NCBI GenBank assembly: GCA_024400755.1
Contig: JAKSMG010000006.1
Location: 17,361-81,360 of the forward strand
Length of the DNA stretch: 64,000 nucleotides
Direction: 5' to 3'
DNA from: Bacteroidales bacterium
GTDB lineage: Bacteria > Bacteroidota > Bacteroidia > Bacteroidales > WCHB1-69
Positions within the stretch are counted from its first letter, which is position 1. Each line of letters begins with the position of its first letter. The notes under the pieces were generated by a model. That model saw only the letters and a program-made list of their open reading frames with translations, was not told the origin of the DNA and searched no databases. The translations under genes and the position numbers were made by a program. Positions 10,177 to 30,368 of the stretch are shown here, in pieces.

Positions 10177-11547
10177 ATGGCCTTTGATAATCGTGATAAT
10201 ATTGATTTTGGCAAGGAAAATATTCCCAAACTTTTCCGAAGTATCTTTATTCCTACTGTTTTGGGAATGCTTTTCAATGCCGTTTTTGTGTTAACCGACG
10301 GTGTCTTTATTGGGCATGGAGTTGGGGCGGCGGGCTTGGCCAGCGTCAACCTGGTGGCCCCGATTATGATGATTATCACCGGCTTGGGCATGATGTTCGG
10401 CTCGGGTTGCGCGGTGGTGGCGGCCATTCAACTGGCACAGTCGAAAGTCAAGGTGGCGAGAATCAATATCACGCAGTCGTTTATTGCCTGCCTGCTGTTG
10501 TCGTTGCTGTTGGTGCTGTTTTTCTATACTTGTCCGCAGTTGGTGTTTCGCATCTTGGGAGTCAGCGACAGTCTTCACGAATTGGCGATGGATTATTATT
10601 TATGGTTTTTACCCACTTGCGTGTTTTTGATGATACAGATTTGGGGAGAATTTGTCATTCGTTTGGACGGTTCGCCGCGTTATGTGATGTGTGCCAACAT
10701 CATTCCCGCGGTCATCAATATCATATTGGACTACACGTTTATCTTTCCTTGCAATTTAGGACTGAAGGGAGCGGCCTTGGCCACCGACATTGGTTGCGGC
10801 GTAGGTGCGGTGATGACTTTATTCTATATGTTTTTCCTGCGTAAGCAGTTGTCGTTTTATCCGCTTAAAATGACAAGGACAAGCAACCGTTTGGCGGTGC
10901 GTAACATTGGCTATATGATCAGATTAGGTTTTGCCGCCTTTTTGAGCGAATTGGCCATTTCGGTTATGATGTTGGCGGGCAATATCGCTTTTGCCAAGCA
11001 ATTGGGCGATGCCGGTGTTGCCGCGTACAGTGTGATTTGCTATCTGTTTCCGGTAGTCAATATGATATACATAGCCGTGGCACAATCTGCCCAGCCCATT
11101 ATCAGTTTCAATTACGGAGCGAAGCAGGAAAAGCGGGTGCACGACGCCTTTCGTTACAGTTTGATTGTGAGTTTGCTGATAGGTGCCTTGGCGACTTTGA
11201 TTTTCTTCCTTTTCACTTCAAGTATGGTGTCGGCATTCATAGAATCGACGGATCGGGCTCATATTTTGGCTGTGGGCGGTTTGCCGTGGTATTCCCTTAG
11301 TTTTGTGTTTATCGCGTTTAATGTCGCTGCTATCGGCTATTTTCAGTCTGTAGAAAAAATCACGATGGCCTCGTTGATGATGACCTTGCGTGGAATAGTG
11401 CTTCCGGTTGTGGCGTTTTTATTCTTGCCAATGATCATAGGTGAAATGGGATTATGGTTGGCGATACCGATGGCAGAAATGTTCACGACAATGGTAGAAC
11501 TTATATATTTTGTATTTTTGCGGCGAGAAATTGCTAAAAATGAGTGA
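10177..11547 (+). CDS. MATE family multidrug efflux transporter
   Basis: About 455-aa polytopic membrane protein with the MATE-type N-terminus (IPKLFRSIFIPTVLGMLFNAVFVLTDGVFIGHGVG). The ATG at 10177 is preferred over the TTG at 10156. Confidence 0.85.
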   Translation: MAFDNRDNIDFGKENIPKLFRSIFIPTVLGMLFNAVFVLTDGVFIGHGVGAAGLASVNLVAPIMMIITGLGMMFGSGCAVVAAIQLAQSKVKVARINITQSFIACLLLSLLLVLFFYTCPQLVFRILGVSDSLHELAMDYYLWFLPTCVFLMIQIWGEFVIRLDGSPRYVMCANIIPAVINIILDYTFIFPCNLGLKGAALATDIGCGVGAVMTLFYMFFLRKQLSFYPLKMTRTSNRLAVRNIGYMIRLGFAAFLSELAISVMMLAGNIAFAKQLGDAGVAAYSVICYLFPVVNMIYIAVAQSAQPIISFNYGAKQEKRVHDAFRYSLIVSLLIGALATLIFFLFTSSMVSAFIESTDRAHILAVGGLPWYSLSFVFIAFNVAAIGYFQSVEKITMASLMMTLRGIVLPVVAFLFLPMIIGEMGLWLAIPMAEMFTTMVELIYFVFLRREIAKNE

Positions 11548-12043
11548 CAAGATGACACTTGAGCAGCGGCGACGCTGTATGCAGGCGAATAAAAGTAAAA
11601 ACACCTCTATTGAGATATTATTGGGGCGTGCGTTGTGGGCACGTGGATTGCGATATCGCAAGCACTGTAAGGATGTGCCGGGTCGTCCCGACTTTTGTTT
11701 CAAGGGCAAAAGGCTTGCTGTCTTTTGTGACGGCGAGTTTTGGCATGGTCGCGACTGGGAGCAGAACAAGCAGCGTATTCACAGCCATCGGGAATTTTGG
11801 TACGACAAGATAGAGCGCAACCAGCGGCGGGATATGGCCGTGAACCAGCAGTTGCGGAGTGCGGGGTGGCAGGTGTTGCGTTTTTGGGAGACGGACATCC
11901 GCAAGCACTTGGATTCCTGTGTGCAGATGGTGGAGGCGGCTCTCAACGGTGCATCCGTACCCGACAGGGTGTTTTACGAGTACATCGAAACTTCCAATTT
12001 GTTGGTTGCCGAAGCCGAGATGGTGTACGGGAAAAAGGAGTAA
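11540..12043 (+). CDS. vsr: very-short-patch repair endonuclease
   Basis: TSIEILLGRALWARGLRYRK...PGRPDFCF...AVFCDGEFWHGRDW matches the Vsr catalytic core. The start overlaps the MATE stop (ATGAGTGA). Confidence 0.85.
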   Translation: MSDKMTLEQRRRCMQANKSKNTSIEILLGRALWARGLRYRKHCKDVPGRPDFCFKGKRLAVFCDGEFWHGRDWEQNKQRIHSHREFWYDKIERNQRRDMAVNQQLRSAGWQVLRFWETDIRKHLDSCVQMVEAALNGASVPDRVFYEYIETSNLLVAEAEMVYGKKE

Positions 12044-12115
12044 AGTGTCAACTACGCAAATGGTTTGCGTAGTAAAAAAACGGGGGGTGAGCCAGTCTGA
12101 TATTATATTTTTTGT

Positions 12116-12123
12116 TATTTTTG
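12116..12123 (+). promoter_or_regulatory. -7 promoter motif TATTTTTG upstream of the 115-aa ORF
   Basis: TAnnTTTG match 50 nt upstream of the ATG at 12173. Confidence 0.35.
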
Positions 12124-12172
12124 TTGATTGTTTAGAAAAATTCAGATAATTTAACAAGAAACATTATAAGAT

Positions 12173-12520
12173 ATGGAAGTGTCATTTAATGGTGACAAAG
12201 TTTTGTGCGTAAAGATAGACAACACCTTAAATAACAAAGATGTAAAGCATTTAGAAAGGCGTGAAAACATCTACGAATGTACAAGGAAATATTGGCATGT
12301 CAACAAAGAACGCGCCGAAAAAGCCGACTATGTGATGGGCATTGCCAATGGAATTGTACAAGTGGTTTACATTCCTCGAAAGTGGATACTAACAGCCAAC
12401 CCCAGATTTGCAGGACGCTATGAATTTGAAGGTGAAGAGGTGAAAGATTCTTCGTATATTGGAATGAATGTAGCGCAGCTTGTGAAAGGACAAAGCCCAA
12501 TTCGATATTTTAATATGTAA
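12173..12520 (+). CDS. hypothetical small protein (115 aa), first AT-rich gene of the island
   Basis: Intact ORF with its own promoter motif and a downstream terminator. I recognise no family for it. Confidence 0.5.
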   Translation: MEVSFNGDKVLCVKIDNTLNNKDVKHLERRENIYECTRKYWHVNKERAEKADYVMGIANGIVQVVYIPRKWILTANPRFAGRYEFEGEEVKDSSYIGMNVAQLVKGQSPIRYFNM

Positions 12521-12580
12521 ACAATTGCTGAATTGAGAAAAAGTTTTATTTTTGTACTTATTTGAATAATTGGACAAAAA

Positions 12581-12604
12581 AGCCAACAAGCTGCTGGCTT
12601 TTTA
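12581..12604 (+). terminator. intrinsic terminator after the 115-aa ORF
   Basis: AGCCA..CA / TG..TGGCT stem followed by TTTTT. Confidence 0.5.
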
Positions 12605-12740
12605 GAGATGCCTGAATCTTTTGGATTGGTGCCGTGAAAACCTCCAACTATATGTAAGCCATTTATTTAAATGGCAGTTGATGGCAAAAGTAAATATACC
12701 TGAGAACGGCACAACGGGGATGTAAAGATGGAAGAATGTA

Positions 12741-12773
12741 GTGGAGCGCATTTCTGCACTCCGCTTTTGTTTT
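12741..12773 (+). terminator. second hairpin plus T-run (possible terminator of a short untranslated unit)
   Basis: GTGGAGCGC-ATTTCT-GCACTCCGC followed by TTTTGTTTT. Confidence 0.4.
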
Positions 12774-12807
12774 ATCTTCCGTGCAATACTTTTTATGTGT
12801 GCACTAT

Positions 12808-12835
12808 AGTCCGTTGTTATTTTTTGCAACGGACT
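12808..12835 (+). promoter_or_regulatory. C-box-like palindromic operator candidate upstream of the controller gene
   Basis: Perfect 9-bp inverted repeat AGTCCGTTG-N10-CAACGGACT, 22 nt upstream of the ATG at 12858. The T-rich spacer resembles a -7 element. Confidence 0.4.
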
Positions 12836-12857
12836 GTAATTTTGTTAGTTTCCTTTT

Positions 12858-13094
12858 ATGAAGAGAAAAATGACTATGAATCTACTAAAAAATATTGGTA
12901 ATGAGATAATTAGCTTGCGAAAATCAAAAGGTCTATCGCAGGAAAAGTTGGCATTGAATGCCAACATTGACCGCCGCTATATGAGCGACATAGAAAACGG
13001 CCGCCGCAACATTTCCGTGGAGATGCTTTCCAAAATTGCGAAGGCCCTGGAAACTACTGGAAGTGAAATTTTGAAGGTGGCGGAAAAGGAATAG
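12858..13094 (+). CDS. XRE-family HTH protein, R-M controller (C-protein)-like
   Basis: 78 aa with an HTH_3 core: SLRKSKGLSQEKLALNANIDRRYMSDIENGRRNISVEMLSKIAKAL. It lies immediately upstream of an m5C methyltransferase. Confidence 0.75.
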   Translation: MKRKMTMNLLKNIGNEIISLRKSKGLSQEKLALNANIDRRYMSDIENGRRNISVEMLSKIAKALETTGSEILKVAEKE

Positions 13095-13103
13095 GAGGGG
13101 AGT

Positions 13104-14171
13104 ATGGTAAAGAGGAAATATACATCTTTAGACATTTTTGCAGGAGCTGGAGGCTTGAGCTTAGGAGCCTTACAAGCAGGCATAGATGTGTCAATCGCAG
13201 TTGAGATGGATAAATTCGCAGCTGAAACATATAAGTATAATCATCCCAATGCCCGAGTGCTATGCGATAACATTAGCAATATTTCAACAGAAACATTAAA
13301 GAAGAATTCTTTTTTCATTATTATGGGAGGACCGCCTTGCCAGGGATTTTCTTTGTCAAATACAAGAAGTCGTAATTTAGACAATCCTAAGAATTTCCTT
13401 TTTAAAGAGTTTGTTCGTTTCGTTAAAGATCTTCAGCCGAAATGGTTCCTTTTTGAGAATGTTGGCGGATTCCCTTTGTTTGAAAAAGGGCTGATTAGAG
13501 ATGAGGTTAAAAAGTCTTTTGAAGATCTCGGATATTCTGTCGCAGATTCTGTGTTATGGGCTTCTGATTATGGAGTTCCACAAAATAGAAATAGATTCTT
13601 CATGGTGGGGAACAATCAGGGAATAAATTTTGAATTCCCCCAACCATTTGATTATAAGGTTACTGTTGAAGAAGCTTTAGGAGACCTTCCTTTGCTTGAA
13701 AATGGCGATATGATAGAGCGTGCCGCCTATAGGGAAACGTTAAATCAAGCCAGCCATTATGCTAAACAAATGAGGATTGGCTCGGAAAACGCAACTCAAA
13801 ATTATGTTTCAAAAAATGCTGATTATGTGATTGAAAGGTACAAGTATATCCCTCAAGGTGGGAATTGGAGATCAATTCCGAATGAATTGATGGAAAACTA
13901 TGCAGACAAATCAAGATGCCATAGCGGAATATATCGTAGATTATGTGCTGACAAACCTTCAGTGGTAATCTCTAACTATCGAAAAAGCATGTTGATCCAT
14001 CCTTTTCAGAATAGAGGATTGTCTGTTCGAGAAGCTGCAAGACTTCAATCTTTCCCAGATACATTCATATTCAAAGGTTCGCTTATGCATATTCAACAAC
14101 AAATAGGTAATGCCGTCCCACCATTGTTGGCAAAAGCCGTCTTCGATAAAATTTTGAGCTATGAAGAATAA
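13104..14171 (+). CDS. DNA (cytosine-5)-methyltransferase (island MTase 1)
   Basis: Motifs I FAGAGG, IV GGPPCQGFS, VI ENV, VIII QNRNRFF and X GNAVPP. Confidence 0.92.
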   Translation: MVKRKYTSLDIFAGAGGLSLGALQAGIDVSIAVEMDKFAAETYKYNHPNARVLCDNISNISTETLKKNSFFIIMGGPPCQGFSLSNTRSRNLDNPKNFLFKEFVRFVKDLQPKWFLFENVGGFPLFEKGLIRDEVKKSFEDLGYSVADSVLWASDYGVPQNRNRFFMVGNNQGINFEFPQPFDYKVTVEEALGDLPLLENGDMIERAAYRETLNQASHYAKQMRIGSENATQNYVSKNADYVIERYKYIPQGGNWRSIPNELMENYADKSRCHSGIYRRLCADKPSVVISNYRKSMLIHPFQNRGLSVREAARLQSFPDTFIFKGSLMHIQQQIGNAVPPLLAKAVFDKILSYEE

Positions 14172-16308
14172 CAGTGAGAATATGCACTTCAAATTTGATG
14201 TCAGTACCTTCCGTCTTTTGGGACGGGAACTTATTACTGATAGGGTTACGGCATTATTCGAGTTGGTGAAGAACTGTTATGATGCCAATGCTGAGAATGT
14301 TGTCATCACATTTGAAAATGTCAATCCGATTTCAACAAATAGTAGAATCATCATTGAAGATGATGGAATAGGAATGTCTTACGAGGACATCCGCGACAAA
14401 TGGATGGTAATTGGGACAAGCAGCAAAAGAAGAAATAAAACTTCTCCATCGCCGTATAACAGAGCGGTTGTGGGTAAAAAAGGTGTTGGACGATTTGCTG
14501 TTGATAAATTAGGTTCCTGCTTAATTATGCGAACCAAAAAACTTGGTTCTAATGAGCTTCAATGTCTTGAAGTGGATTGGAGCAGGTATTCTGCAGAAGA
14601 AAGTAATCAGCTGAGTCTTGATTTTGAAGATTTTAATGAACAAAATCATCCTATGTTTACGGATATGGATAATCGGCATTGGATTGAGAACGGCATTGAG
14701 ACTCAGCATGGGACGATATTGGAAATATCTCAACTAAATGATATTTGGACTGAAAATGATATTCGTCGCGCTTACAAAGAATTGTCCAAATTAGTCAGAC
14801 CGACATTGGACATCAAATACCCTTTCAATATAAAAATAAGAGCATCTCAATATCAAGATTATCAAGATAAAAAAGTTGTCAGCAGTGCCCTGAATAAAGC
14901 TACATTGAACTATCATCTTTCTTTTCGGTATGATGAGATAACTAAAAAATATTTTCAAGAATACTTGAAAGAAGAGAAAGGGAACCTTGTCGTTAAAGAA
15001 AAAGAAGCAGAGATTTTCGGTCCCATAGCATTGTCTTTATATTACTATGATAAGAATGCTAAAAGAAATTTTGCAAAAGGAGATAGAATTGATGGGGTGA
15101 AAATATATCGAGATGGAATTATTGCAACCCCGTTCGCTGAATATAAAGAAGATAGAGATGAACAAAAAGATTTATTTGGGATAGATAAACGCCGTTGGTC
15201 TGGATTTTTTGAAAAACTAAGTACGAGAGATTTGCTTGGATGGATTGACATTTCTGAAGAATTGAATCCAAAAATCATAGACTCTACTAATCGGCAGGAT
15301 TTTGTTGATAATGGGGAATGGACGGCACTTAAGTCTTTTGTGATTAATCAAGTACATCAGATTGAGTTGCTATTGAAGCATCAAAAATCTCAGCAGAAAT
15401 CAGAAAATCATGAAAAACTGAAACAAGCAACAGAAGATGTTTCATCAATCAAAGCTAAAATTGAAAAGGTGAAAAAAAGTTCTGCTCTGCTCTCTCCTGA
15501 TGTTGAAAAGGATTTGGATGATATTACTTCAAAACTTGATACTATCAAATTGGCAGTTGACAGTTCTGCAGAGGATTTGACGCAAATGGAACAGAGCCAA
15601 AAGGCACAGGAAAATTTGTTTTTCAGTTTGGTGTCTCTGCAATCTTATGCAGCTCAAATGTCTCATATTTTCCGTACGTCAATTGGATACATAAAACGCT
15701 CTGCTGAATTTGTGGCCAAATGGGTGCCTATAGGAGAGAAACAGGATAAAGTGGTGAAACATGCCAAAATTGTTTTTGAAGACACCAATAATTTGTCTAA
15801 AGCAATGGACTTTATGTTGAGTTATGCTGAAGATGAATCGACTTTTGAATATTTTGACATCCGTCAGGCCGTTTACGAAATCTTTGATGAGCGTTATTCA
15901 TATTTGTTTGAAGAGGAATCCATTAAAGTTGAGCGAATTGTTGAAGATGATTTTGAATTGCTATACAATAAAAAAGCATTCCAGGATATGTTTGGAAATC
16001 TGATTGACAATTCTGCTAAAGCATTAAGAAATGTCAATGACAAAAGAATCAAGTGTAGCGCATCGCGTGAAAAAGATTCACTGGTAATAATGTTTTCAGA
16101 TAATGGCTGTGGCATTCCTAAGGAAAACTGGGATAAGATATTTGATGTGTTCTTTACAACAACCGCCGATTTTGGAGGTGCTGGGTTAGGACTATATATC
16201 ATAAAATCAAGATTGGAATCCATCAAAGGTTCTATTTCCTTGGAAGATAATGAATTCCTTCCCAACGGAGCCACATTTAAAATAACAATACCTTTAAAGC
16301 ATGAATAA
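14161..16308 (+). CDS. cytoplasmic histidine kinase with an extra N-terminal MORC/Hsp90-like GHKL ATPase domain
   Basis: N-terminal GHKL motifs are ELVKNCYDANA, IIEDDGIGMS and GKKGVGRFA. A coiled-coil-like middle region follows. The H-box is MSHIFRTSIGY (His502). The C-terminal CA domain has NLIDNSAKAL, SDNGCGI, FDVFFTT and GGAGLGLY. No TM segments are present. Confidence 0.75.
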   Translation: MKNNSENMHFKFDVSTFRLLGRELITDRVTALFELVKNCYDANAENVVITFENVNPISTNSRIIIEDDGIGMSYEDIRDKWMVIGTSSKRRNKTSPSPYNRAVVGKKGVGRFAVDKLGSCLIMRTKKLGSNELQCLEVDWSRYSAEESNQLSLDFEDFNEQNHPMFTDMDNRHWIENGIETQHGTILEISQLNDIWTENDIRRAYKELSKLVRPTLDIKYPFNIKIRASQYQDYQDKKVVSSALNKATLNYHLSFRYDEITKKYFQEYLKEEKGNLVVKEKEAEIFGPIALSLYYYDKNAKRNFAKGDRIDGVKIYRDGIIATPFAEYKEDRDEQKDLFGIDKRRWSGFFEKLSTRDLLGWIDISEELNPKIIDSTNRQDFVDNGEWTALKSFVINQVHQIELLLKHQKSQQKSENHEKLKQATEDVSSIKAKIEKVKKSSALLSPDVEKDLDDITSKLDTIKLAVDSSAEDLTQMEQSQKAQENLFFSLVSLQSYAAQMSHIFRTSIGYIKRSAEFVAKWVPIGEKQDKVVKHAKIVFEDTNNLSKAMDFMLSYAEDESTFEYFDIRQAVYEIFDERYSYLFEEESIKVERIVEDDFELLYNKKAFQDMFGNLIDNSAKALRNVNDKRIKCSASREKDSLVIMFSDNGCGIPKENWDKIFDVFFTTTADFGGAGLGLYIIKSRLESIKGSISLEDNEFLPNGATFKITIPLKHE

Positions 16309-16909
16309 TACAGAGAAAATGGATGTGGAAATCATCTATATTGATGATGTCTTAAGACCGGAAAAAAACGCCTTCCTTGACGATTTGGAAGGAACCATTA
16401 CGGATGCCAAACAGTTTGACAATCCATCGAAAGGACTTGATTACATCAAAGAAAATATCGATAAGAACATTATTGTTATTTTGGATTGGAGATTTGCTAA
16501 TTGTAGCCAGCAGGGAGCCGATATATTGAATTCAATATATGAAATGTCAGCTTTGGTCCCCGTTATTGTTTTTACAGGAGCCAATATTGATGTGACAGCT
16601 GCTTCAAATATGTTTAAAGGACATGCGTTCAGTTGTCTCTCGAAAGATGCGTCAACGCAAGAGATAACGGATGCAATTGAAGATGCATATCTGCGTATTC
16701 AAAACGACATCCGTTCTGTGATGAGCCGATGGATTCAAAACCTGCCATCTGACAAACGGGAAGCTCCGTATATGTCCTACAAGGACAAAACTTATTCCTT
16801 GAATGATCTTCTTGATTCTATTCGCAGACAGGATGAAATAGGCAAAGAATTGACACGGAATATTTTAGGCCTTGCTGCTGAAATGTTTACCAATAATTTG
16901 AAGAAATGA
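16301..16909 (+). CDS. receiver (REC) domain protein with an uncharacterised roughly 70-aa C-terminal tail
   Basis: Receiver landmarks are IYIDDV (acidic pair), VILDWRF (Asp62 acceptor), VFTGA (Thr) and LSKD (Lys). An 8-nt overlap with the kinase gene supports coupling. Confidence 0.65.
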   Translation: MNNTEKMDVEIIYIDDVLRPEKNAFLDDLEGTITDAKQFDNPSKGLDYIKENIDKNIIVILDWRFANCSQQGADILNSIYEMSALVPVIVFTGANIDVTAASNMFKGHAFSCLSKDASTQEITDAIEDAYLRIQNDIRSVMSRWIQNLPSDKREAPYMSYKDKTYSLNDLLDSIRRQDEIGKELTRNILGLAAEMFTNNLKK

Positions 16910-17553
16910 GACTGAATGCTGTGATTATTTGTGACGATTCAGAAAGCAATGATTTGAAACCTTTGTTTTCAAATCTGATGCGTGAAACATCCAATGCTCT
17001 CTGTGCATATAAAGATGCAAACAACATCGATTTGACACTTGAGAATCTTACACACGAGAGAGTTGATGTTCAGTCTCTTTCAGAGCGTCTTTCAAATGTA
17101 AATCAGAATGACTTTTTGTGCTATGTGTATTCGCATGGTGAGTGCGACAAGGTTCAGATGGATGGAGAAACCATTGTATCAACAACGACCAATCAATATT
17201 TGTTCAGCAATGCCTTGATTTATACATTTTCGTGCAGCAATGGTAGCGAGTTGGCAGATGTATTGATAGACAATGGTGCAAAATTATTTGTAGGATACAC
17301 GGATAACGCTTGGTTTACGATAGGTTGCGAAAATGAATATACCGAAAGAATTGCAATGACATTTGTAAATTCGTTTTTGAACGGTAACAATGCACAAAAA
17401 GCATTTGAAGATTTGAAAGAATCGTATAACAATGTGATATTTGACGATTCGTTGAAAGATCCGATATTGAAAGGAAATCTTCGCAAAAATCGAGACTGCT
17501 TGACACTCAAGGGTGATGGAAATTTAAGGATTTCAGATGTGAAACTGAATTAA
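16906..17553 (+). CDS. minimal caspase/gingipain-like (caspase-hemoglobinase fold) protein, putative protease effector
   Basis: Hydrophobic strand then His (LCYVYSHGE, His77) and hydrophobic strand then Cys (LIYTFSCSNG, Cys110), followed by LFVGYTD. This assignment rests on the motif pattern only. Confidence 0.45.
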   Translation: MRLNAVIICDDSESNDLKPLFSNLMRETSNALCAYKDANNIDLTLENLTHERVDVQSLSERLSNVNQNDFLCYVYSHGECDKVQMDGETIVSTTTNQYLFSNALIYTFSCSNGSELADVLIDNGAKLFVGYTDNAWFTIGCENEYTERIAMTFVNSFLNGNNAQKAFEDLKESYNNVIFDDSLKDPILKGNLRKNRDCLTLKGDGNLRISDVKLN

Positions 17554-17566
17554 TTGGAAGAATTTT

Positions 17567-18703
17567 ATGCCAAAGAAAAAACATACATTTATCGATTTGT
17601 TCGCAGGGTGCGGAGGCTTGAGTCTTGGCCTTGAGCAAGCTGGCTTTGCCCCTTGTTTTGTAAATGAAATTGTTGAAACTTTTTGTCAAACATACAAGGA
17701 AAATCATAATTTGTCAGAAGACAGGTATTACGTTGGAGACATTAATGAACTCAATCAAGAAATTGATAAATTTTCGCCATTATTTAAGGACGTCACTCTT
17801 GTATGTGGGGGGCCTCCCTGCCAAGGATTTTCAATGGCAAATCGTCAAAGAGTTATTGATGATCCAAGGAATCAACTGTATAAAGCGTTTCTTCAATTTC
17901 TTAGTAAAGTAAGACCTCAATTTTTCATCATGGAGAATGTAAAAGGCATGATGAATAAAATAGATGAAATAGAACAAAATTACAAAGATTTCTTGGGCGA
18001 TGAATATGCTTTTGCCTATGACGTGTTAAGAGCCCAAGATTTCGGCGTTCCTCAAAATAGAGAACGGTTGATTTTTATTGGGAACAGAGTTGGAGTTAAT
18101 CCAAAAATGATTTTTGAGGAAATCTACAAGCAAAAAAGAATATCCTTTGTGCTGCGCGATGCGTTGATTGGATTGCCTCATTTAGAATCAAAAACCGACA
18201 AAGGTCAGAAAGATATTGAAAATGATCTGTCTGGTTTTACAGTTCGAGATTTTGAGTATATACAAAATGATTTTTACCATTTTATTAATGGGGAAAAAGT
18301 ACTGACTAAATTGTTCAATCATAAGAATAGGTATAATAATCCGAGAGACATTGAAATATATAGGCGTTTGCCCCAAGGCGCAAATTCGCTTCATGAATCT
18401 ATCGTCGACATTATGCCGTACAAAAGCAGAAATGATATATTCAAAGATAAATATTTCAAACTTGATGAAAATCAAATTTGCAAAACTATAACTTCACACA
18501 TGAAGTACGATTGCAATATGTACATTCATCCATGGGAAGCTAGAGGATTAAGTCCTCGTGAGGCAGCTCGAATCCAGACATTTCCAGATGATTTTGTATT
18601 TACTGGAGCACAAAATCAGTGGTATGCGCAAATAGGAAATGCCGTGCCAGTAAAATTAGCAAAGGCAATAGGTGAAGGAATAATGAAATTTATAGAAAAA
18701 TGA
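17567..18703 (+). CDS. DNA (cytosine-5)-methyltransferase (island MTase 2)
   Basis: Motifs FAGCGG, GGPPCQGFS, ENV, QNRERLIF and GNAVPV. Confidence 0.92.
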   Translation: MPKKKHTFIDLFAGCGGLSLGLEQAGFAPCFVNEIVETFCQTYKENHNLSEDRYYVGDINELNQEIDKFSPLFKDVTLVCGGPPCQGFSMANRQRVIDDPRNQLYKAFLQFLSKVRPQFFIMENVKGMMNKIDEIEQNYKDFLGDEYAFAYDVLRAQDFGVPQNRERLIFIGNRVGVNPKMIFEEIYKQKRISFVLRDALIGLPHLESKTDKGQKDIENDLSGFTVRDFEYIQNDFYHFINGEKVLTKLFNHKNRYNNPRDIEIYRRLPQGANSLHESIVDIMPYKSRNDIFKDKYFKLDENQICKTITSHMKYDCNMYIHPWEARGLSPREAARIQTFPDDFVFTGAQNQWYAQIGNAVPVKLAKAIGEGIMKFIEK

Positions 18704-19779
18704 GACATTTAGAGTTATTTGCAGGTATAGGTGGTTTCAGAAGAGCAACGGATTTGCTCACTAAAGATAAAATAATGAATTTTAATTGCGTTGGATATTC
18801 GGAAATTGACAAAAATGCAATTTCTACCTATTGTGCTAATTTCAAGCCTAATAAGGATGAAATACCCATAGGAGATATTGTGACATTTACCGCACACCCG
18901 CAAAATATCCAATCGCTTCCCGATTTTGATTTGCTCACAGGAGGATTTCCGTGCCAGACATTTAGCATGATGGGGAAAATGGCTGGCTTTAATGAGGATA
19001 GAGGACAGATGTTTTTTCGAATCATGGATATTCTTAAATCGAAGCATCCACGTTATGTTTTACTTGAGAATGTCAAAAATCTTGTCAATCATGACAAAGG
19101 GAAAACTTTTTCAAGAATCAAACAAGAATTGGAAGATTTGGGTTATCATGTTTTTCCAAACATATATAATACAGCTGATTTCCATCTTCCTCAAACCCGT
19201 AATCGTCTTGTTGTGTTTGCAACAAAAGATGATTTAGATGAAAAATGGATGAAAAAAGCATTTACTCCAAGCTCTGTAAAAGAAACATTTGATAATGTTT
19301 ATAAAACATTAAGCACAAATCATTATTCTACAGTAATTGACGTTCTTTCTTCTAAGGCTGATAGTAAGTATTTCCTTTCTGAAAGGATCAAACCGACCAT
19401 ACTTGCCGATGGCTCAGCAAACTTCAAGTCAAAATCGGACATTAATATGAATATTGCTCGTCCTTTGACCGCTACAATGCACAAGATGCATCGTGCTTGC
19501 CAGGACAACTATTATAGTCAGGATTTCATTGAATCCCATGGCAAAATCAATCATGTGGAAGATTACACGAAGGAGCAATTGGCACAATTACCTATTAGAA
19601 AACTCACCCCGGAAGAAGCATTTATGTTGCAAGGTTTCCCAAAACAGTTTGCTACAAATGGTCGAAAAGCTGGAGTGTCAGATGGTGCGTTATACAAACA
19701 AGCAGGAAATGCTGTAAGCGTCAATGTTATTTATGCAATACTATATTTTTTGATTACTAATAATTTAATTGTTGAATAA
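18700..19779 (+). CDS. DNA (cytosine-5)-methyltransferase (island MTase 3)
   Basis: Motifs FAGIGG, GGFPCQTFS, ENV, QTRNRLVVF and GNAVSV. It overlaps MTase 2 by ATGA. Confidence 0.9.
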   Translation: MRHLELFAGIGGFRRATDLLTKDKIMNFNCVGYSEIDKNAISTYCANFKPNKDEIPIGDIVTFTAHPQNIQSLPDFDLLTGGFPCQTFSMMGKMAGFNEDRGQMFFRIMDILKSKHPRYVLLENVKNLVNHDKGKTFSRIKQELEDLGYHVFPNIYNTADFHLPQTRNRLVVFATKDDLDEKWMKKAFTPSSVKETFDNVYKTLSTNHYSTVIDVLSSKADSKYFLSERIKPTILADGSANFKSKSDINMNIARPLTATMHKMHRACQDNYYSQDFIESHGKINHVEDYTKEQLAQLPIRKLTPEEAFMLQGFPKQFATNGRKAGVSDGALYKQAGNAVSVNVIYAILYFLITNNLIVE

Positions 19780-19781
19780 TC

Positions 19782-20831
19782 ATGTTTTTTTTCTTCTTTA
19801 ATAACGAAAACAGGATTGGATTTAAGAAACTGACTGGAGCAGATTTGGGAATTTCTGAAACGAGCCATCAATCTCATATTGGTTTATACGAAGGTGTTCT
19901 GGAGTTTTTAGACGATTCTGATGTTGTAAGATCGGCTATGTTAATCTATGGAGACTACTGCAATGTGTTGGATTGTTCGTTCGACAGAATAAAAAATCCA
20001 GATGGTTCTTACAGAAGCCCTAAAATACGAATAGGCCAAGATTCAGACAATTCAGTTGTTTCAAAGATCAGAGGGTTTGCAAGAGAATATCCAAATGACG
20101 ATTGGTATCTGGCTTGGATGGGATTAGAGAGTAAAGAACTGGTGTTTTGGCTTGTCAAAAGTAGTACGACGGACTACGATACTGCAAGGAATTTTTTTCC
20201 GAAAGATAAAATTGTATTACAGGAAGATTCACCGACCTATAATGCTGCAAAAGATTATCTTTTGAATCGAATAAACTTTCTAAGCGTTGATGTCCAAAAG
20301 GATATTGAGGTCAAAAGTTTGATTGGTGATTCGAGGAGAAAATATAAGGTAAGAGACCTCGAAAATGCAGAACGGCAATTCAAGCTGACAGGGAAAGAAG
20401 GTGAAGAGTTGGTTGCACAATTTTTAGAACGAGAGAAATTGGCGAAACGAGTAGAGTCCTTCGTGTGGGAAAACAAATCTTATGAATCTGGATTGCCGTA
20501 TGATTTTATTGTCAATGGAAAAATTTTTGTTGATGTAAAATCTACAAGATTTGATTTTGAACAATTTTTGTTTTATAGCAATCAAGAGATAGATTTTGCC
20601 GCTGCCCAAAACAATTTGACCTACGCTGTATATAGAGTGTTTGATATGAATATGGAGCAAAGAAAATTGTCCATTTGTAATAACTGTCAGCCGTATATGA
20701 AATCTATACAACAGCCGATTGTTGATTTAAAAAATGCCGTAAGAACACAACATGCTCTTATGCAAAGCATAAAATTGGGATTAAAACCATCTATTTGTTT
20801 CAATGAAATAAGCAACCCTATTTTATTATAA
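19782..20831 (+). CDS. putative restriction endonuclease subunit with a C-terminal DUF3883-like PD-(D/E)xK domain
   Basis: The C-terminal pattern GKEGEELVAQFL...LPYDFIV...IFVDVKST...FLFYSNQEIDFA resembles the DUF3883/NO VEIN-C nuclease fold. The N-terminal FKKLTGADLG... region may bind DNA. Confidence 0.5.
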   Translation: MFFFFFNNENRIGFKKLTGADLGISETSHQSHIGLYEGVLEFLDDSDVVRSAMLIYGDYCNVLDCSFDRIKNPDGSYRSPKIRIGQDSDNSVVSKIRGFAREYPNDDWYLAWMGLESKELVFWLVKSSTTDYDTARNFFPKDKIVLQEDSPTYNAAKDYLLNRINFLSVDVQKDIEVKSLIGDSRRKYKVRDLENAERQFKLTGKEGEELVAQFLEREKLAKRVESFVWENKSYESGLPYDFIVNGKIFVDVKSTRFDFEQFLFYSNQEIDFAAAQNNLTYAVYRVFDMNMEQRKLSICNNCQPYMKSIQQPIVDLKNAVRTQHALMQSIKLGLKPSICFNEISNPILL

Positions 20832-20834
20832 ACT

Positions 20835-22820
20835 ATGGAAGAAATAGTCAAACACATAAACGATACCAATGCTAGTTTTCGCACCCCGAATGCTGGTGAT
20901 GCAAAAAATACGGATTTATTTTTGGATAACGAACAATATGACTTATTTAAAGATGAAGGGGAACAAATTACCGTCCGTTATAACAAAGAAAATCTTTCAA
21001 AAGCCATTCTTTTCATAGCGTCCATACTTCCAAGAAAATATGATAATTCTGGAATGCATAAATCTATCACTTATTCTTCGGAATTTGTATATGACCAACT
21101 GGCTTTTCTGGATTATTTCTTCAAAGAAAGTGGTGTTTCTGTAGATAAGAAAACTCAAAAATGGAATGTTCGTAAGAATGTGCCAAAGAAAAATGGAGAA
21201 ATAGATAATCGATTCTATTTTAATGGGCTTCTGGATGATGTTGAATATGTTAATGTCAAAAAAGAGAGGGTTTCCTCGAAATTCACTATACGCAATTATC
21301 TTGCTGGTGGATATTCTGACCTCCACATAAAAAGGGCTAATGATGGCATCTTTGATGTATGGGTGACAAATGTCCAACAACCATATTTTGATGATAAAGA
21401 AGAATTAGAAATTGAGGATAAGTCGTCACATAATAATCTCCCTCTCCAAACCATCTTCTACGGTGCCCCTGGCACAGGGAAATCACACAAGGTGAAGGAA
21501 GTGACAGAGACCCTGCCAAAGAGCGATGTTTTCCGCACTACGTTTCATCCGGATTCTGATTATTCAACTTTTGTGGGTTGTTACAAGCCCAAGATGGTGA
21601 AAGCGCCTATTAGAGATGGCAGCGGACACGAAATAACCTCGGCATGTGAAGATGAGAAGAAGCGCATTGCATACGAGTATGAACCGCAGGCATTCCTGAA
21701 AGCCTACGTCCGTGCCTACGAAACCAACGATCCTGTTTTCCTTGTCATCGAGGAAATCAACCGCGGTAACTGCGCCCAGATTTTCGGCGATATGTTCCAA
21801 TTGCTGGACAGAAATGAAAACGGCGAATCGGATTACGCCATCAAACCCGAAACGGCCATCCAGGAATTTCTCAACGAAAAGCTGGAAGATTGTGACATTG
21901 CGGATGAAACCATCAAATCGGGAGAAGAGATGCGTCTGCCTGCAAACCTCCATATCTGGGCTACGATGAACACCTCCGACCAAAGCCTGTTCCCGATAGA
22001 CTCCGCCTTCAAGAGAAGATGGGATTGGAAATATATGCCAATCGACACACGAAAAGAATCATGGGGCATCAAGGTAAACGGGACTGAGTACAGTTGGAGC
22101 AGTTTCTTGGAGAAAATCAACGAGGAGATAGGTTCTATTACTAATAGTGAAGACAAAAAACTCGGCTTTTATTTCTGTAAAGCAGAAAATGGCATCATCA
22201 GTGCTGAGAAGTTTGTGAGCAAAGTGCTGTTCTATATCTATAATGATGTGTTCAAGGATTACGGCTTTGAAAGCAGCAAGAACAAAGATCTTTTCAAAGA
22301 TGGTGACAACAAGCTGGCTTTCGGGACATTCTATTCTGATAATGGGAATATTCGAGAAGAAAAGGTTGATCTGTTTTTGAAGAATCTTGGAGTAGAAGAT
22401 GCCAAAAGAAACAACATGATTTCCAATGATGAAGAAGATGAGGACGGGAATAGCTCAACCACCGAAAGCTCAAGTCGTAACTACGATAAATTCTCCATCA
22501 ATGGTTCTGGTAGATATGCAAAAAATAATCTTGCAGCAGAATGTGTGAAGAAGTATATCGAACTAAACTCCGATATCACTGTTGAAGAAGTTCTTCATAA
22601 TTGGAGTGATTTCAAGAACTTAGTACCTCATTTCATGGAATCAAAAGACGAGTTTGATGCTAGGACAGATAACAGCAAACGTTCTCATGAAATTCCGTGT
22701 AATGGATCAGTATTGTACGTGGCACACAATGGCTATGGTAGCAATGGCAAGGCTCAAATATTGATGGACAGCGTGAATCAAAAAGGCTGGGGATTGACAA
22801 TCGAAAGACATAATGCATAA
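20835..22820 (+). CDS. McrB-like AAA+ (GTPase-type) restriction subunit
   Basis: Walker A FYGAPGTGKSH. The McrB signature FLVIEEINRGNCAQIFGDMFQLLDR and HIWATMNTSDQSLFPIDSAFKRRW are both present. N- and C-terminal domains are uncharacterised. Confidence 0.85.
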   Translation: MEEIVKHINDTNASFRTPNAGDAKNTDLFLDNEQYDLFKDEGEQITVRYNKENLSKAILFIASILPRKYDNSGMHKSITYSSEFVYDQLAFLDYFFKESGVSVDKKTQKWNVRKNVPKKNGEIDNRFYFNGLLDDVEYVNVKKERVSSKFTIRNYLAGGYSDLHIKRANDGIFDVWVTNVQQPYFDDKEELEIEDKSSHNNLPLQTIFYGAPGTGKSHKVKEVTETLPKSDVFRTTFHPDSDYSTFVGCYKPKMVKAPIRDGSGHEITSACEDEKKRIAYEYEPQAFLKAYVRAYETNDPVFLVIEEINRGNCAQIFGDMFQLLDRNENGESDYAIKPETAIQEFLNEKLEDCDIADETIKSGEEMRLPANLHIWATMNTSDQSLFPIDSAFKRRWDWKYMPIDTRKESWGIKVNGTEYSWSSFLEKINEEIGSITNSEDKKLGFYFCKAENGIISAEKFVSKVLFYIYNDVFKDYGFESSKNKDLFKDGDNKLAFGTFYSDNGNIREEKVDLFLKNLGVEDAKRNNMISNDEEDEDGNSSTTESSSRNYDKFSINGSGRYAKNNLAAECVKKYIELNSDITVEEVLHNWSDFKNLVPHFMESKDEFDARTDNSKRSHEIPCNGSVLYVAHNGYGSNGKAQILMDSVNQKGWGLTIERHNA

Positions 22821-22842
22821 GAATTAGCATTGAAGAATAAAT

Positions 22843-24423
22843 ATGGCATTTCACATCAACATAGAAGACCTGTTGAACGGCAAGGCGGTGGAAAACAATC
22901 GCCTTGACTATAAAGAAGGATGGAATCCCGATGCCATCTATCGTACCATCTGTGCCTTTGCCAATGATTTTGAAGATACCGGCGGTGGCTACATTGTGGT
23001 GGGCGTGAAGGAAGAAAACGGTCGTGCCGTGCGTCCGGTGATGGGTGTTAATCCGCAGCAGATTGAGACAATTGAGAAGGAAATGGTGGGTTACAACAAC
23101 CTCATACAGCCATACTATCAGCCGCGGTTGTTTATTGAGGAAGCCGACGGCAAAAACATCCTCATCATCAAGGTTATTGCTGGCGAACGCCGCCCTTACA
23201 AAGTGCCTGATTTTATTACAGCCAAGCAGAAAAACTGGAATTACTATATCCGCTATAATAGCAGCTGCATCGTTCCCAAGAACGAGTACGAGGAAGAGTT
23301 GCGAGGGCTTGCCAACCGCGTGCCGTTCGATGATCGTGGCAATGCTGACATCAAGATAACCGATATTTCAACCTCTATTTTACGTGACCATCTCGTGTCG
23401 GTGAAGAGTGCCCTTGCTAACGAGGACATGAGCGGCGAGCGTCTGTGGACAATACTTGATCAAATGGACTTAACGGAACAGACACCCGACGGACCTGTCA
23501 TCCGCAATGTGGCAGCCATGATGTTCTCTGAGCATCCCGACAAGTTCTTCAAGTACTCTCAAGTGGAGATTGTCATCTTTCCTGAAGGACGTGAGCACAA
23601 TCCAAACAACATGATTGAGTTGCCCGTCATCAAAGGACCTGTGCCCTACATGATACGCGACACAATGAATGCCCTGAAGGTGAACGTCATCCGCAAGAGC
23701 ATCCGCAAACAGAAGTTCGACGAGCATTCCATACCCACCTATAATTACCCTTATCAGGCATTAGAGGAGGCGGTGGTCAACTCGCTCTATCATCGCGATT
23801 ATCAAGATCGCGAACCCGTAGAGATAACCATGGAACCAAACAAGATCAGCATTCTTAGTTTTTCCGGCCCTAACCACACCATTAGCATGGATGCCATCCA
23901 TGAGGCCAAACTTCTCCGTTCGCGCAGATATCGTAATCGCCGCTTGGGAGAGTTCCTTAAGGAACTTGATTTGACGGAGGGTCGAAGTACGGGCATTCCT
24001 ACCATTCAAGAAGAACTTGCCAACAATGGTTCACCAGCCGCCACCATAGAAACCGATGACGCTCGCTCGTATTTCATTATTGACATCCCGTGCCATAAAG
24101 ACTTTGTGGGTGATGTTTTGGTGCTGAATGAAGGAGAAAATGCCATAAAGGATGTTGCGAAAAAATTAACTGACAGACAAATGGTTATCTATGAAATCAT
24201 AGCACATGGCACATTGGATGAAACCATAAATGTCCCTGTAAATGTCCCTGTAAATGTCCCTGTAAATGTCCCTGTAAATATTTCTATAAATGTAACAACC
24301 CTTGCATCGTGGCTTATGGTGACGGAGAAGACCATTAAACGCGACCTTTCTGCTATGCAAGCTGCGGGTGTTATCAAGCGAGTAGGTAGCGATAAGACAG
24401 GTTATTGGGAAGTAATTCAATAA
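22843..24423 (+). CDS. AlbA_2 (Schlafen-like) / HATPase_c_4 / wHTH protein (RecG-like putative DNA-binding family)
   Basis: N-terminal RLDYKEGWNP...ICAFANDFEDTGGGYIVVGV. Central VNSLYHRDYQ...RNRRLGEFLKELDLTEGRSTGIPTI. A C-terminal winged-helix domain follows. Confidence 0.75.
   Translation: MAFHINIEDLLNGKAVENNRLDYKEGWNPDAIYRTICAFANDFEDTGGGYIVVGVKEENGRAVRPVMGVNPQQIETIEKEMVGYNNLIQPYYQPRLFIEEADGKNILIIKVIAGERRPYKVPDFITAKQKNWNYYIRYNSSCIVPKNEYEEELRGLANRVPFDDRGNADIKITDISTSILRDHLVSVKSALANEDMSGERLWTILDQMDLTEQTPDGPVIRNVAAMMFSEHPDKFFKYSQVEIVIFPEGREHNPNNMIELPVIKGPVPYMIRDTMNALKVNVIRKSIRKQKFDEHSIPTYNYPYQALEEAVVNSLYHRDYQDREPVEITMEPNKISILSFSGPNHTISMDAIHEAKLLRSRRYRNRRLGEFLKELDLTEGRSTGIPTIQEELANNGSPAATIETDDARSYFIIDIPCHKDFVGDVLVLNEGENAIKDVAKKLTDRQMVIYEIIAHGTLDETINVPVNVPVNVPVNVPVNISINVTTLASWLMVTEKTIKRDLSAMQAAGVIKRVGSDKTGYWEVIQ
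24227..24295 (+). repeat. in-frame 12-bp tandem repeat (TAAATGTCCCTG x4 perfect plus 2 degenerate)
   Basis: Read directly from the sequence. It encodes (VNVP)4 followed by NISINV inside the C-terminal wHTH region of the AlbA_2 protein. Confidence 0.9.
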
Positions 24424-24433
24424 AAAGACAACT

Positions 24434-27330: not shown

Positions 27331-27384
27331 GACCAGTCTAGCGCATGTTTTTAGAAGAATATCAATAAAAACAAAATTGTGATT

Positions 27385-29936: not shown

Positions 29937-30368
29937 TTACAAAACAATGCAGGCAATCATCCATCTTTCCGGCAATCCGTCAAAATACCACAATTTTTCA
30001 CCCCATTGGTCTTTTTGGCGAATGTAGTTGCCGTCAATGTAAAACAAAACGGTTCCCCACTGGTCCTTTTGCCTAATTTTGTTGCCGTCGAAATACAGCA
30101 GTTTCTCGCCCCACTGGTCTTTCAATCTGACGGTGTTGCCGTCCATATACAGGAGTTTTTCGCCCCACTGGTCTTTGTGCCGGATGGTTTTCCCATCAAA
30201 ATAAACCAATTTTTGCCCCCATTGGTCTTTCTGTCTAATTATTTGATTGTCAATATAATATAATTTTGTTCCCCATTGATCTTTTTGGCGAACGGTAATT
30301 TGTGCCGTCAGAGGGAATAATGTTGTTGCGAAAATAAGCAGAATGAAAATTTGTTTGATTGTTTTCAT
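29937..30368 (-). CDS. secreted protein with six tandem 18-aa KDQWG repeats
   Basis: A signal peptide is followed by six copies of (I/V)RxKDQWGxKLxYxDGxx. Confidence 0.7.
   Translation of the reverse strand: MKTIKQIFILLIFATTLFPLTAQITVRQKDQWGTKLYYIDNQIIRQKDQWGQKLVYFDGKTIRHKDQWGEKLLYMDGNTVRLKDQWGEKLLYFDGNKIRQKDQWGTVLFYIDGNYIRQKDQWGEKLWYFDGLPERWMIACIVL

Follow-up and report, generated by a model that had tools for sequence, protein, structure and literature searches.

A methyltransferase-led operon of a Bacteroidales genome encodes a predicted histidine kinase, a receiver and a caspase-like protein and belongs to an Ambrosia-like superfamily

Which function is encoded in the endonuclease slot of an operon that otherwise looks like a restriction-modification (R-M) system, when the genes found there code for a predicted histidine kinase, a receiver and a caspase-like protein? 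This question is raised by a 64,000-nucleotide (nt) stretch of a Bacteroidales metagenome-assembled genome, which was analysed as a whole and is called the window below. A first-pass annotation of the window had proposed that three open reading frames (ORFs) behind a C-5 cytosine (m5C) DNA methyltransferase gene form an undescribed phosphorelay defence module. The five genes of the operon are all located on the + strand between 12858 and 17553. The coordinates of the ORFs and the overlaps of 11 nt (methylase/ORF1), 8 nt (ORF1/ORF2) and 4 nt (ORF2/ORF3) were borne out by our ORF listing, while the regulator gene is separated from the methylase gene by 9 nt.

12858-13094, + strand: C-protein-like XRE/HTH_3 regulator, 78 amino acids (aa) (Pfam HTH_3, E 2e-15; PADLOC Control_protein, E 5e-18)
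13104-14171, + strand: C-5 cytosine DNA methyltransferase M1, 355 aa, MCQ2270364.1 (Pfam DNA_methylase, E 1e-69; PADLOC MTase_II, E 7e-123)
14161-16308, + strand: ORF1, 715 aa, MCQ2270365.1, predicted soluble paraMORC-histidine kinase (Pfam, NCBIfam, BLASTP, profile and AlphaFold (AF2) model)
16301-16909, + strand: ORF2, 202 aa, MCQ2270366.1, receiver at residues 5-136 followed by a 65-aa C-terminal domain (Pfam and PDB profile)
16906-17553, + strand: ORF3, 215 aa, MCQ2270367.1, minimal clan-CD putative cysteine protease and presumed effector (AF2 model and Foldseek)

In GenBank, MCQ2270364.1 to MCQ2270367.1 are labelled methyltransferase, ATP-binding protein, response regulator and hypothetical protein, respectively. 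We conclude that the operon is the caspase-effector branch of an Ambrosia-like superfamily, and thus a protease-armed sister of Ambrosia and not a categorically new system. Ambrosia of Pseudomonas aeruginosa consists of an XRE regulator (AbrR), an N6 methylase (AbrA), a kinase/HSP90-like ATPase (AbrB), a receiver (AbrC) and an HNH protein (AbrD); it defends its host from two phage groups and all of its genes are needed (10.1101/2025.09.30.679545).

The proteins of the window were scanned with Pfam, NCBIfam and PADLOC models. Relatives were searched for in one genome per species, which returned 180 relatives, the best 80 of which were analysed. The synteny set comprised 87 loci, 80 of them from these species-level genomes, and was scored with hidden Markov models (HMMs) for each protein and then re-checked by BLASTP. 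Conservation was read from alignments of 82 ORF1 homologues, 84 ORF2 sequences and 84 ORF3 sequences.

ORF1 harbours two ATPase domains. The C-terminal one (Pfam HATPase_c, residues 605-713, E 1e-25) belongs to the kinase that had been noticed before, whereas the N-terminal GHKL domain (Pfam HATPase_c_3, residues 30-152, E 8e-25) was absent from the earlier description. In the AF2 model the GHKL domain (~6-210) is followed by a beta-rich S5-like region (~223-384), a coiled coil with the dimerisation and histidine phosphotransfer (DHp) region (385-556) and the catalytic ATP-binding (CA) domain (563-713); His502 is on the long coiled coil, after which a second helix of the DHp region and then the CA domain follow. 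This model is of low confidence (predicted local distance difference test, pLDDT, 62) and served for domain boundaries only. When it was searched with Foldseek, the kinase half alone was matched, by cytoplasmic domains such as those of ZraS and HK853. In the alignment of the ORF1 family profile with HK853 (E 5e-13), which covers residues 496-709, His502 ('QISHILR') falls on the phospho-accepting His of the HK853 sequence 'ISHELRTPL'. His502 and the CA-domain residues Asn613, Asp647, Gly649/651 and Gly673/675/677 are invariant in the homologue alignment, which supports the H-box and the N/G1/F/G2 catalytic domain described before. The ATP-site residues of the N-terminal domain (Asn38, Asp67, Gly69, Gly71 and Gly105/108/110) are kept in 81/82 homologues.

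14272-14274, + strand: codon of Asn38, the Mg2+/ATP-binding Asn in 'ELVKNCYDA' (81/82 homologues, one gap; equivalent to Asn40 of AbrB)
15664-15666, + strand: codon of His502, predicted phospho-acceptor (invariant, 82/82; alignment to the HK853 H-box)

The N-terminal domain links ORF1 to restriction enzymes. Residues 10-209 match NCBIfam NF050001, the family of the BbrUII/HgiDII restriction enzymes (E 1e-20), and two PADLOC REase_II models match the same N-terminal stretch (E 6e-14 and 2e-9). Moreover, the AbrB protein of Ambrosia (747 aa; HATPase_c, HATPase_c_3 and HATPase_c_5) is itself labelled a type II restriction endonuclease by DefenseFinder (Table S1 of 10.1101/2025.09.30.679545). These matches would fit an ordinary type II pair in which ORF1 is the endonuclease partner of M1, with ORF2 and ORF3 as accessory proteins. 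However, all of them are limited to the N-terminal ATPase (residues 6-209). The NF050001 match is partial, as it covers profile positions 3-184 of 659 and its score of 73.5 bits lies far below the cut-off of 550, and the remainder of the protein consists of coiled coil, DHp and CA and is unmatched by any nuclease family. We therefore regard ORF1 as extremely unlikely to be a restriction endonuclease, and the type II R-M reading was ruled out on domain content. Since the endonuclease models match the ATPase domain of ORF1, M1 and ORF1 are likely to be reported as a type II R-M pair by automated annotation.

A paraMORC protein is defined by a GHKL domain plus an S5 domain (Iyer, Abhiman, Aravind 2008, PMC2292703). 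Judged from its sequence, ORF1 is best read as such a paraMORC-type ATPase, in which a kinase takes the place of the C-terminal nuclease of the related restriction enzymes. With the BbrUII/HgiDII enzymes and paraMORC3 it shares a homologous N-terminal GHKL module, an m5C methylase partner and the proximity of Vsr (PMC2292703), but their C-terminal part is a nuclease and that of ORF1 a histidine-kinase transmitter. The paraMORC GHKL module is most likely the sensor of the system. The same part of the protein also carries the likeness to AbrB: BLASTP aligned AbrB residues 1-399 with ORF1 residues 20-383 (E 1e-30, 27% identity), placing 'ELVKNAYDA' (Asn40) of AbrB on 'ELVKNCYDA' (Asn38) of ORF1. 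Defence by Ambrosia was lost in the AbrB N40A mutant and also in the AbrC D60A mutant (10.1101/2025.09.30.679545).

ORF2 is only barely recognised by Pfam Response_reg (PF00072; 30.9 bits, just over the cut-off), and its family profile matches solved receivers in the PDB over residues 5-136 with E 1e-10. All receiver landmarks named in the first-pass annotation are at canonical positions: the acidic pair Asp15/Asp16, the predicted phospho-acceptor Asp62, Thr92 and Lys115. Asp16 and Asp62 are found in 84/84 sequences and Thr or Ser at position 92 also in 84/84, while 67/84 have Lys or Arg at position 115. The codons given earlier for Asp62 and for His502 of ORF1 were likewise correct.

16484-16486, + strand: codon of Asp62, predicted phospho-acceptor (invariant, 84/84; aligned to Asp60 of AbrC in 'IILDEQL')

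When ORF2 was compared with AbrC by BLASTP and by a small HMM search, no significant match was obtained. With hhalign, ORF2 and AbrC-like receivers were aligned across the receiver core alone, at a probability of 92% and with Asp62 on Asp60; the C-terminal domains are unrelated. In the ORF2 family, residues 137-202 are conserved at Glu142, Trp144, Leu171, Arg175 and Gly181, and this conservation reaches a homologue from Stenotrophomonas. The 65-aa C-terminal domain has no solved relative and no family match in the PDB profile search and the family libraries, and no DNA-binding family in Pfam, NCBIfam, PADLOC or the PDB profile search matches ORF2.

The AF2 model of ORF3, built from an alignment of 39 homologues, is of high confidence (pLDDT 92.5; predicted template modelling score, pTM, 0.90). 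Its best Foldseek match in the PDB was the SAVED-CHAT filament protease 8tl0 (E 3e-6), and caspase-7, gingipain R (1cvr), caspase-8 and caspase-3 were also matched; for 8tl0, caspase-7 and 1cvr the E values ranged from 3e-6 to 1e-4 and the template modelling (TM) scores from 0.5 to 0.65. In the viral structure library BFVD, metacaspase, caspase and clostripain proteins were matched. The pattern of a strand followed by His and a strand followed by Cys, which had been noticed before, is thus present in a predicted fold like that of caspases, gingipains and CHAT proteins.

17134-17136, + strand: codon of His77 in the 'SHG' motif, preceded by the strand 70-75 (His 84/84; the next residue, Gly78, 84/84)
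17233-17235, + strand: codon of Cys110 in the 'FSC' motif, preceded by the strand 103-108 (Cys 83/84, one gap)

Cys110 is 33 residues away from His77, as is Cys244 from His211 in gingipain R. One could argue that ORF3 is a caspase-fold scaffold or pseudo-enzyme devoid of protease activity, with the relay having another output. Consistent with this, ORF3 of the window is recognised by no family of Pfam, NCBIfam or PADLOC, and a precomputed match to Peptidase_C25 was found in one homologue only. Against it stands the conservation: among 84 sequences with 17-46% identity to the window protein (bar one close relative at 72%), the positions that are at least 95% conserved are His77, Gly78, Cys110 and Gly130 only. 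In addition, the context of His77 and Cys110 resembles the signature of clan-CD peptidases, a hydrophobic strand ending in His-Gly and a later strand ending in Ser/Ala-Cys. This is the pattern expected of a working clan-CD dyad, so that protease activity is predicted and a pseudo-enzyme appears very unlikely. ORF3 would then represent a new minimal caspase-like family in bacterial immunity for which Pfam, NCBIfam and PADLOC hold no model. It shares the predicted fold, the order of the putative His/Cys dyad and the presumed place as output of an immune pathway with the SAVED-CHAT protease of type III CRISPR systems and with gasdermin-activating and TIR-activated caspase-like proteases. Those enzymes are activated by cyclic nucleotides or other small molecules via fused sensors, whereas ORF3 is a bare 215-aa domain that has a predicted phosphorylatable receiver as its upstream partner; there is neither a gasdermin gene nor another obvious substrate gene.

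The arrangement of methylase, kinase, receiver and caspase-like gene (the cassette) is conserved far beyond the window. Close homologues show the order methylase (355 aa), kinase (713 aa), receiver (201 aa) and ORF3-like protein (213/215 aa), followed by differing neighbours, for instance a methylase with a McrB-like system at one locus and a methylase with an HpaII enzyme at another. The 80 species-level relatives belong to Bacteroidales, Marinilabiliales, Flavobacteriales, Cytophagales, Chitinophagales and Sphingobacteriales, apart from a few short contigs that were binned to other phyla, and the cassette is common among the Bacteroidota of the gut, the rumen and the sea. A receiver gene directly follows the kinase gene in 83/87 loci and a caspase-like gene directly follows the receiver gene in 81/87, with gaps between the genes of -55 to +21 nt; the methylase gene is located 5' of the kinase gene in 84/87. 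In the six loci where ORF3 was not called as a neighbour, two end at a contig end and four also carry an ORF3-like gene. The apparent misses of synteny are contig ends or offsets in ORF calling, and in the BLASTP re-check all four proteins were present wherever the locus sequence existed. The co-occurrence of the three genes beside an m5C methylase, on which the earlier proposal had depended, was therefore found in the same order in essentially all 80 species-level Bacteroidota loci. Identity to the window proteins decreases from the kinase (38-88%) over the receiver (24-83%) to the caspase-like protein (22-72%). One locus from a viral contig (L176, IMG/VR) has the complete four-gene order as judged from ORF sizes of 350, 710, 203 and 209 aa.

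Two unrelated types of m5C methylase were found among the loci. Each of them is confined to particular kinase clades, which indicates that the methylase is co-inherited with the kinase. Swapping of methylases between kinase clades was ruled out, as each kinase cluster contains a single type of methylase. M1 of the window has intact motifs (FAGAGG, PPCQ with Cys79, ENV, QNRNR and GNAVP). Neighbourhood counts were taken over 67 loci, 24 of which have a Vsr gene and 14 a further methylase gene downstream. Neither a nuclease nor a second methylase is constant downstream of the cassette, so the cassette appears autonomous. Moreover, no nuclease domain was detected in ORF1-3 by Pfam, NCBIfam or PADLOC, nor by Foldseek against the PDB for ORF3. 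The suggestion that kinase, receiver and caspase-like genes fill the endonuclease slot is thus supported.

We also looked at the start of the operon. An inverted repeat lies ~20 nt 5' of the C gene and is the sole palindrome found there.

12805-12838, no strand assigned: inverted repeat TATAGTCCGTTG-N10-CAACGGACTGTA, candidate C-box operator (repeat search; 12-nt arms, 92% complementary)

The right arm of the repeat abuts a TAATTTTG motif (TAnnTTTG-like) at 12837-12844. Palindromes of the AGTC/GACT type are known for C proteins, and on this basis we consider the repeat a putative C-protein operator. A terminator-like hairpin at 12577-12603 ends the preceding gene. Together with the repeat 5' of the regulator gene, this places the start of the operon near 12.8 kb. 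In other loci, HTH_3 genes similar to that of the window are found immediately 5' of the methylase gene (L018, L034, L043, L044, L073 and L074); a small gene of this kind turns up in several clades, though not everywhere. Control by a C protein, as the first-pass annotation had it, may therefore apply to the window operon, which is headed by a C-protein-like gene and the 5' palindrome, but the C protein is present in a subset of the loci only.

When compared with Ambrosia, the window operon follows the same logic: an XRE regulator, a methylase, a kinase with HATPase_c_3 and HATPase_c domains, a receiver of ~205 aa and an effector of ~210 aa, with AbrR as the positional counterpart of the 78-aa HTH protein. 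The two differ in the methylase, which is an N6-adenine enzyme in Ambrosia (AbrA) and a C5-cytosine enzyme in the window (M1), and in the effector, which is the HNH nuclease AbrD in the former and the caspase-like ORF3 in the latter. In addition, Ambrosia is found mainly in Pseudomonadales, whereas the system of the window occurs in Bacteroidota and a few Proteobacteria. In a clustering of the kinases AbrB groups with HNH-type kinases, apart from the caspase clade, with ~25-28% identity between clades.

A second related architecture was described in a purely computational study, in which proteins with HATPase_c_3, HEF_HK and HATPase_c domains adjoin Response_reg_2 genes and C5 methylases and were derived from paraMORC proteins; a third gene and a peptidase are not mentioned there (Bellieny-Rabelo et al. 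2021, PMC8011034). The likeness includes a soluble HATPase_c_3-DHp-HATPase_c kinase, a receiver-like neighbour, an upstream C5 methylase and a Vsr gene that is often near. However, ORF1 has no match to PF19191 (HEF_HK) up to E 10, and neither do 48 distant kinases; ORF2 has no match to PF19192 (Response_reg_2) up to E 10 and is recognised by PF00072 only. AbrC and other receiver-like partners are likewise matched by neither model. Thus none of the paraMORC-kinases and receiver-like proteins examined is recognised by PF19191 or PF19192, although they show the architecture on which the two models are based; the models may be narrow, or these proteins may form different branches. The HEF_HK family is probably the branch of the superfamily that has a receiver-fused regulator of ~390 aa.

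Detocs is composed of the TPR-kinase DtcA (TPR, tetratricopeptide repeat), the receiver buffer DtcB and the receiver-PNP protein DtcC (PNP, purine nucleoside phosphorylase). Like the system proposed here it is a His-Asp phosphorelay phage defence with an enzymatic effector, but it has a TPR sensor, a second receiver as buffer and an ATP-degrading effector fused to a receiver, and it is without a methylase partner. A Detocs reading of the window operon was ruled out, because no TPR or PNP domain was found in the Pfam scan and there is a single receiver gene; among the PADLOC models, only REase_II models match ORF1-3. The earlier statement that the cassette is not Detocs is thus in line with its domain content. 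In the literature, we did not find a kinase-receiver-caspase defence system beyond the two related studies (PMC8011034 and 10.1101/2025.09.30.679545). The claim that the module is undescribed can therefore be kept only in part: only the branch with the caspase-like effector seems to lack a description in the literature searched, whereas the architecture had appeared in PMC8011034 and the sister system Ambrosia has been validated.

The superfamily was extended by searching plasmids with tblastn, which returned full-length kinase relatives at 24-28% identity, and by a metagenome scan with the 48 distant kinases as queries, which gave 80 further loci. The plasmid loci show that the genes behind the kinase differ.

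Stenotrophomonas plasmid: m5C methylase, kinase (28% identity), 212-aa receiver-like protein and 226-aa protein with 'ISHGS' and 'AISCGT'
Hymenobacter and Pseudanabaena plasmids: kinase, ~226-aa receiver-like protein and metallo-β-lactamase-fold hydrolase, with an N6 methylase before the kinase in Hymenobacter only
Bacillus plasmid: kinase, 215-aa protein, HNH nuclease and N6 methylase
Acaryochloris, Bacillus and Campylobacter plasmids: kinase, followed by a 340-390-aa receiver fused to an unknown domain

By its predicted proteins, the Stenotrophomonas locus is the same system in a gammaproteobacterium. The 80 metagenome loci included 13 of the HNH class, 6 of the caspase class, 4-7 of the metallo-β-lactamase class, ~15 with a fused receiver (every one with an m5C methylase) and ~17 of a three-gene class with an Eco57I-like methylase. 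When the kinases were clustered, these effector classes were recovered almost perfectly, so that kinase clades track the effector types (HNH, metallo-β-lactamase, caspase-like and receiver-fused); the caspase class forms a large clade (26/26) and a small second one. In this second clade (L103, 4905-5777; L105) the effectors are 281-291 aa long with an extra C-terminal region, and the m5C methylase gene is located 3' and not 5'. In the three-gene branch (L109, L115, L125-L127, L133, L135, L136, L142, L161, L165 and L168) the downstream genes encode proteins of ~370, ~250 and ~620 aa, the last of which is an Eco57I-like N6 methylase while the first two have no Pfam match. Other partners of paraMORC-kinases (L112, L114 and L164) include one of 1090 aa that bears a helicase C-terminal domain and one that has GmrSD_N and HNH_4 domains. 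By hhalign, the caspase and HNH subtypes have homologous receiver cores, but the receiver's C-terminal domain differs between them, and its variation with the effector subtype would fit an effector-specific adaptor.

With moderate confidence we propose that 12.8-17.55 kb encodes an Ambrosia-type, R-M-like defence system of five genes, in which a caspase-like protease and not a nuclease is the output. The C protein would bind the 5' palindrome and set the timing and level of operon expression, and M1 would methylate cytosines of the host DNA. The N-terminal GHKL and S5 ATPase of ORF1 would sense a trigger that is probably linked to DNA or its methylation, probably by ATP-driven dimerisation. 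This would turn on the C-terminal kinase, which would autophosphorylate at His502 and pass the phosphoryl group to Asp62 of ORF2. The C-terminal, subtype-specific domain of phosphorylated ORF2 would then activate ORF3, for example through dimerisation of ORF3, and the His77/Cys110 dyad would cleave phage or host proteins and stop the infection. Gene content and coupling, conservation, folds, intact catalytic residues and the homology to AbrB come from the analysis itself, while the defence role, the trigger, the substrates and direct activation of ORF3 by ORF2 are inferred. Direct control of ORF3 by ORF2 is favoured since the effector gene always adjoins and overlaps the receiver gene, since the extra domain of the receiver varies with the effector type and since other branches have receiver and partner domain in one fused protein.

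Alternatively, ORF1 could phosphorylate ORF2, which would induce the operon, and ORF3 would act by its raised concentration without any contact between receiver and protease. Caspases are activated by proximity at higher concentration, which would fit such a mode, and the conserved 65-aa C-terminal domain of ORF2 has a size that suits a DNA-binding domain. In Ambrosia, moreover, reporters put in place of abrA or abrD were nearly silent at rest but showed strong induction once phage infected the cells; AbrC is said to bear a winged helix (10.1101/2025.09.30.679545). However, both ORF2 and AbrC match no DNA-binding family. The gene for ORF3 is also translationally coupled (4- and 8-nt overlaps), so that the effector should be made whenever the sensors are made, and a C-terminal domain that varies with the effector is expected of an adaptor and not of a promoter-binding domain. 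We therefore think purely transcriptional control rather unlikely.

The cassette could also serve selfish addiction or genome surveillance: after loss or dilution of the methylase, ORF1 would sense the unmethylated chromosome and the protease would kill or arrest the cell, like the post-segregational killing of type II R-M systems. The strict linkage and co-evolution of methylase and kinase, the presence of a C protein and the plasmid-borne relatives agree with this. So does the low G+C of the region (35-39% over ~12000-23000 vs 42-49% in most flanking sequence), which suggests that ~12000-23000 is a horizontally acquired defence island. This role is, however, compatible with defence and not exclusive of it, the cassette is mostly chromosomal across the 80 species-level genomes, and Ambrosia protects from phage without host toxicity being seen (10.1101/2025.09.30.679545). 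Addiction as the function of the cassette is therefore distinctly unlikely in our view.

Several points weigh against the proposed protease relay. The defence role would follow from genomic context and from one homologous system described in a preprint. The S5-like assignment of ORF1 residues 223-384 is weak, owing to the poor model (pLDDT 62), and the sequence profile of the ORF3 family gave chance matches only in the PDB (E at least 0.16), so that fold and motif are what the caspase assignment is based on. The last 65 aa of ORF2, having no recognisable fold, could be a small DNA-binding domain. The cassette is rare in viral contigs, which yielded 4 loci only (L175-L178, IMG/VR), and is thus not typical phage cargo. 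Ambrosia expression rises on infection, and its authors prefer transcriptional control driven by the receiver (10.1101/2025.09.30.679545). Methylation-status sensing and an abortive-infection output, as suggested in the first-pass annotation, may apply here, but phages from an AbrA-expressing host were still sensitive to Ambrosia (10.1101/2025.09.30.679545), which disfavours simple protection by methylation, and simple sensing of unmethylated DNA as well, at least for the Ambrosia subtype; abortive infection is likewise disfavoured for that subtype by the lack of host toxicity.

If the effector of the proposed relay is a protease, the methylase cannot protect or prepare its substrate, which would place the methylase on the sensing side. 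A variant with a protease effector cannot act by cutting DNA, which makes the role of the methylase separable from that of the effector and the question of sensing testable. It is possible, and we say so tentatively, that the window encodes the first case in which a His-Asp phosphorelay is the direct switch of a caspase-type protease and that, throughout the superfamily, the methylase acts on the sensing side, by supplying a mark or a bait for a MORC-like ATPase to read, and not by protecting or preparing DNA with regard to a nuclease. If true, two-component signalling would be extended to the activation of proteases. In that case a MORC-type ATPase would translate a cue of DNA or epigenetic nature into phosphorylation, which would be of interest for the biology of eukaryotic MORC proteins.

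The cassette is not the end of the operon region, as a complete LlaJI/BsuMI-like R-M system (17567-26674) is located directly 3' of it. This system is separate and starts 13 nt past ORF3; the nucleases 3' of the cassette belong to it, and it has two methylases of its own.

17567-18703 and 18700-19779: two m5C methylases of the LlaJI-like system
19782-20831: NOV_C-domain protein of the LlaJI-like system, 349 aa
20835-22820: McrB-like AAA_5 protein of the LlaJI-like system
22843-24423: gene with Schlafen/AlbA_2, HATPase_c_4 and HTH domains, between the McrB-like and RE_LlaJI genes
24434-26674: weak match to RE_LlaJI, LlaJI-like system

Within the AlbA_2 gene, a perfect 12-bp tandem repeat of TAAATGTCCCTG is present in 4.4 copies (24227-24279) and encodes (NVPV)n; gain or loss of a TAAATGTCCCTG unit would keep the reading frame. 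Just 5' of the five-gene operon, a Vsr mismatch endonuclease is encoded at 11510-12043 (TIGR00632, E 1e-43). It is followed by a 115-aa ORF (12173-12520), perhaps a fragment or else a small relative, which matches the PADLOC PD-T4-3 model only over its positions 142-208 of 256. Further downstream, a RhuM-family gene is found at 27379-28377, and a 143-aa ORF on the - strand (29937-30368) has a signal-peptide-like start and six tandem repeats of ~17 aa, 'IRQKDQWGxKLxYxDGxx'.

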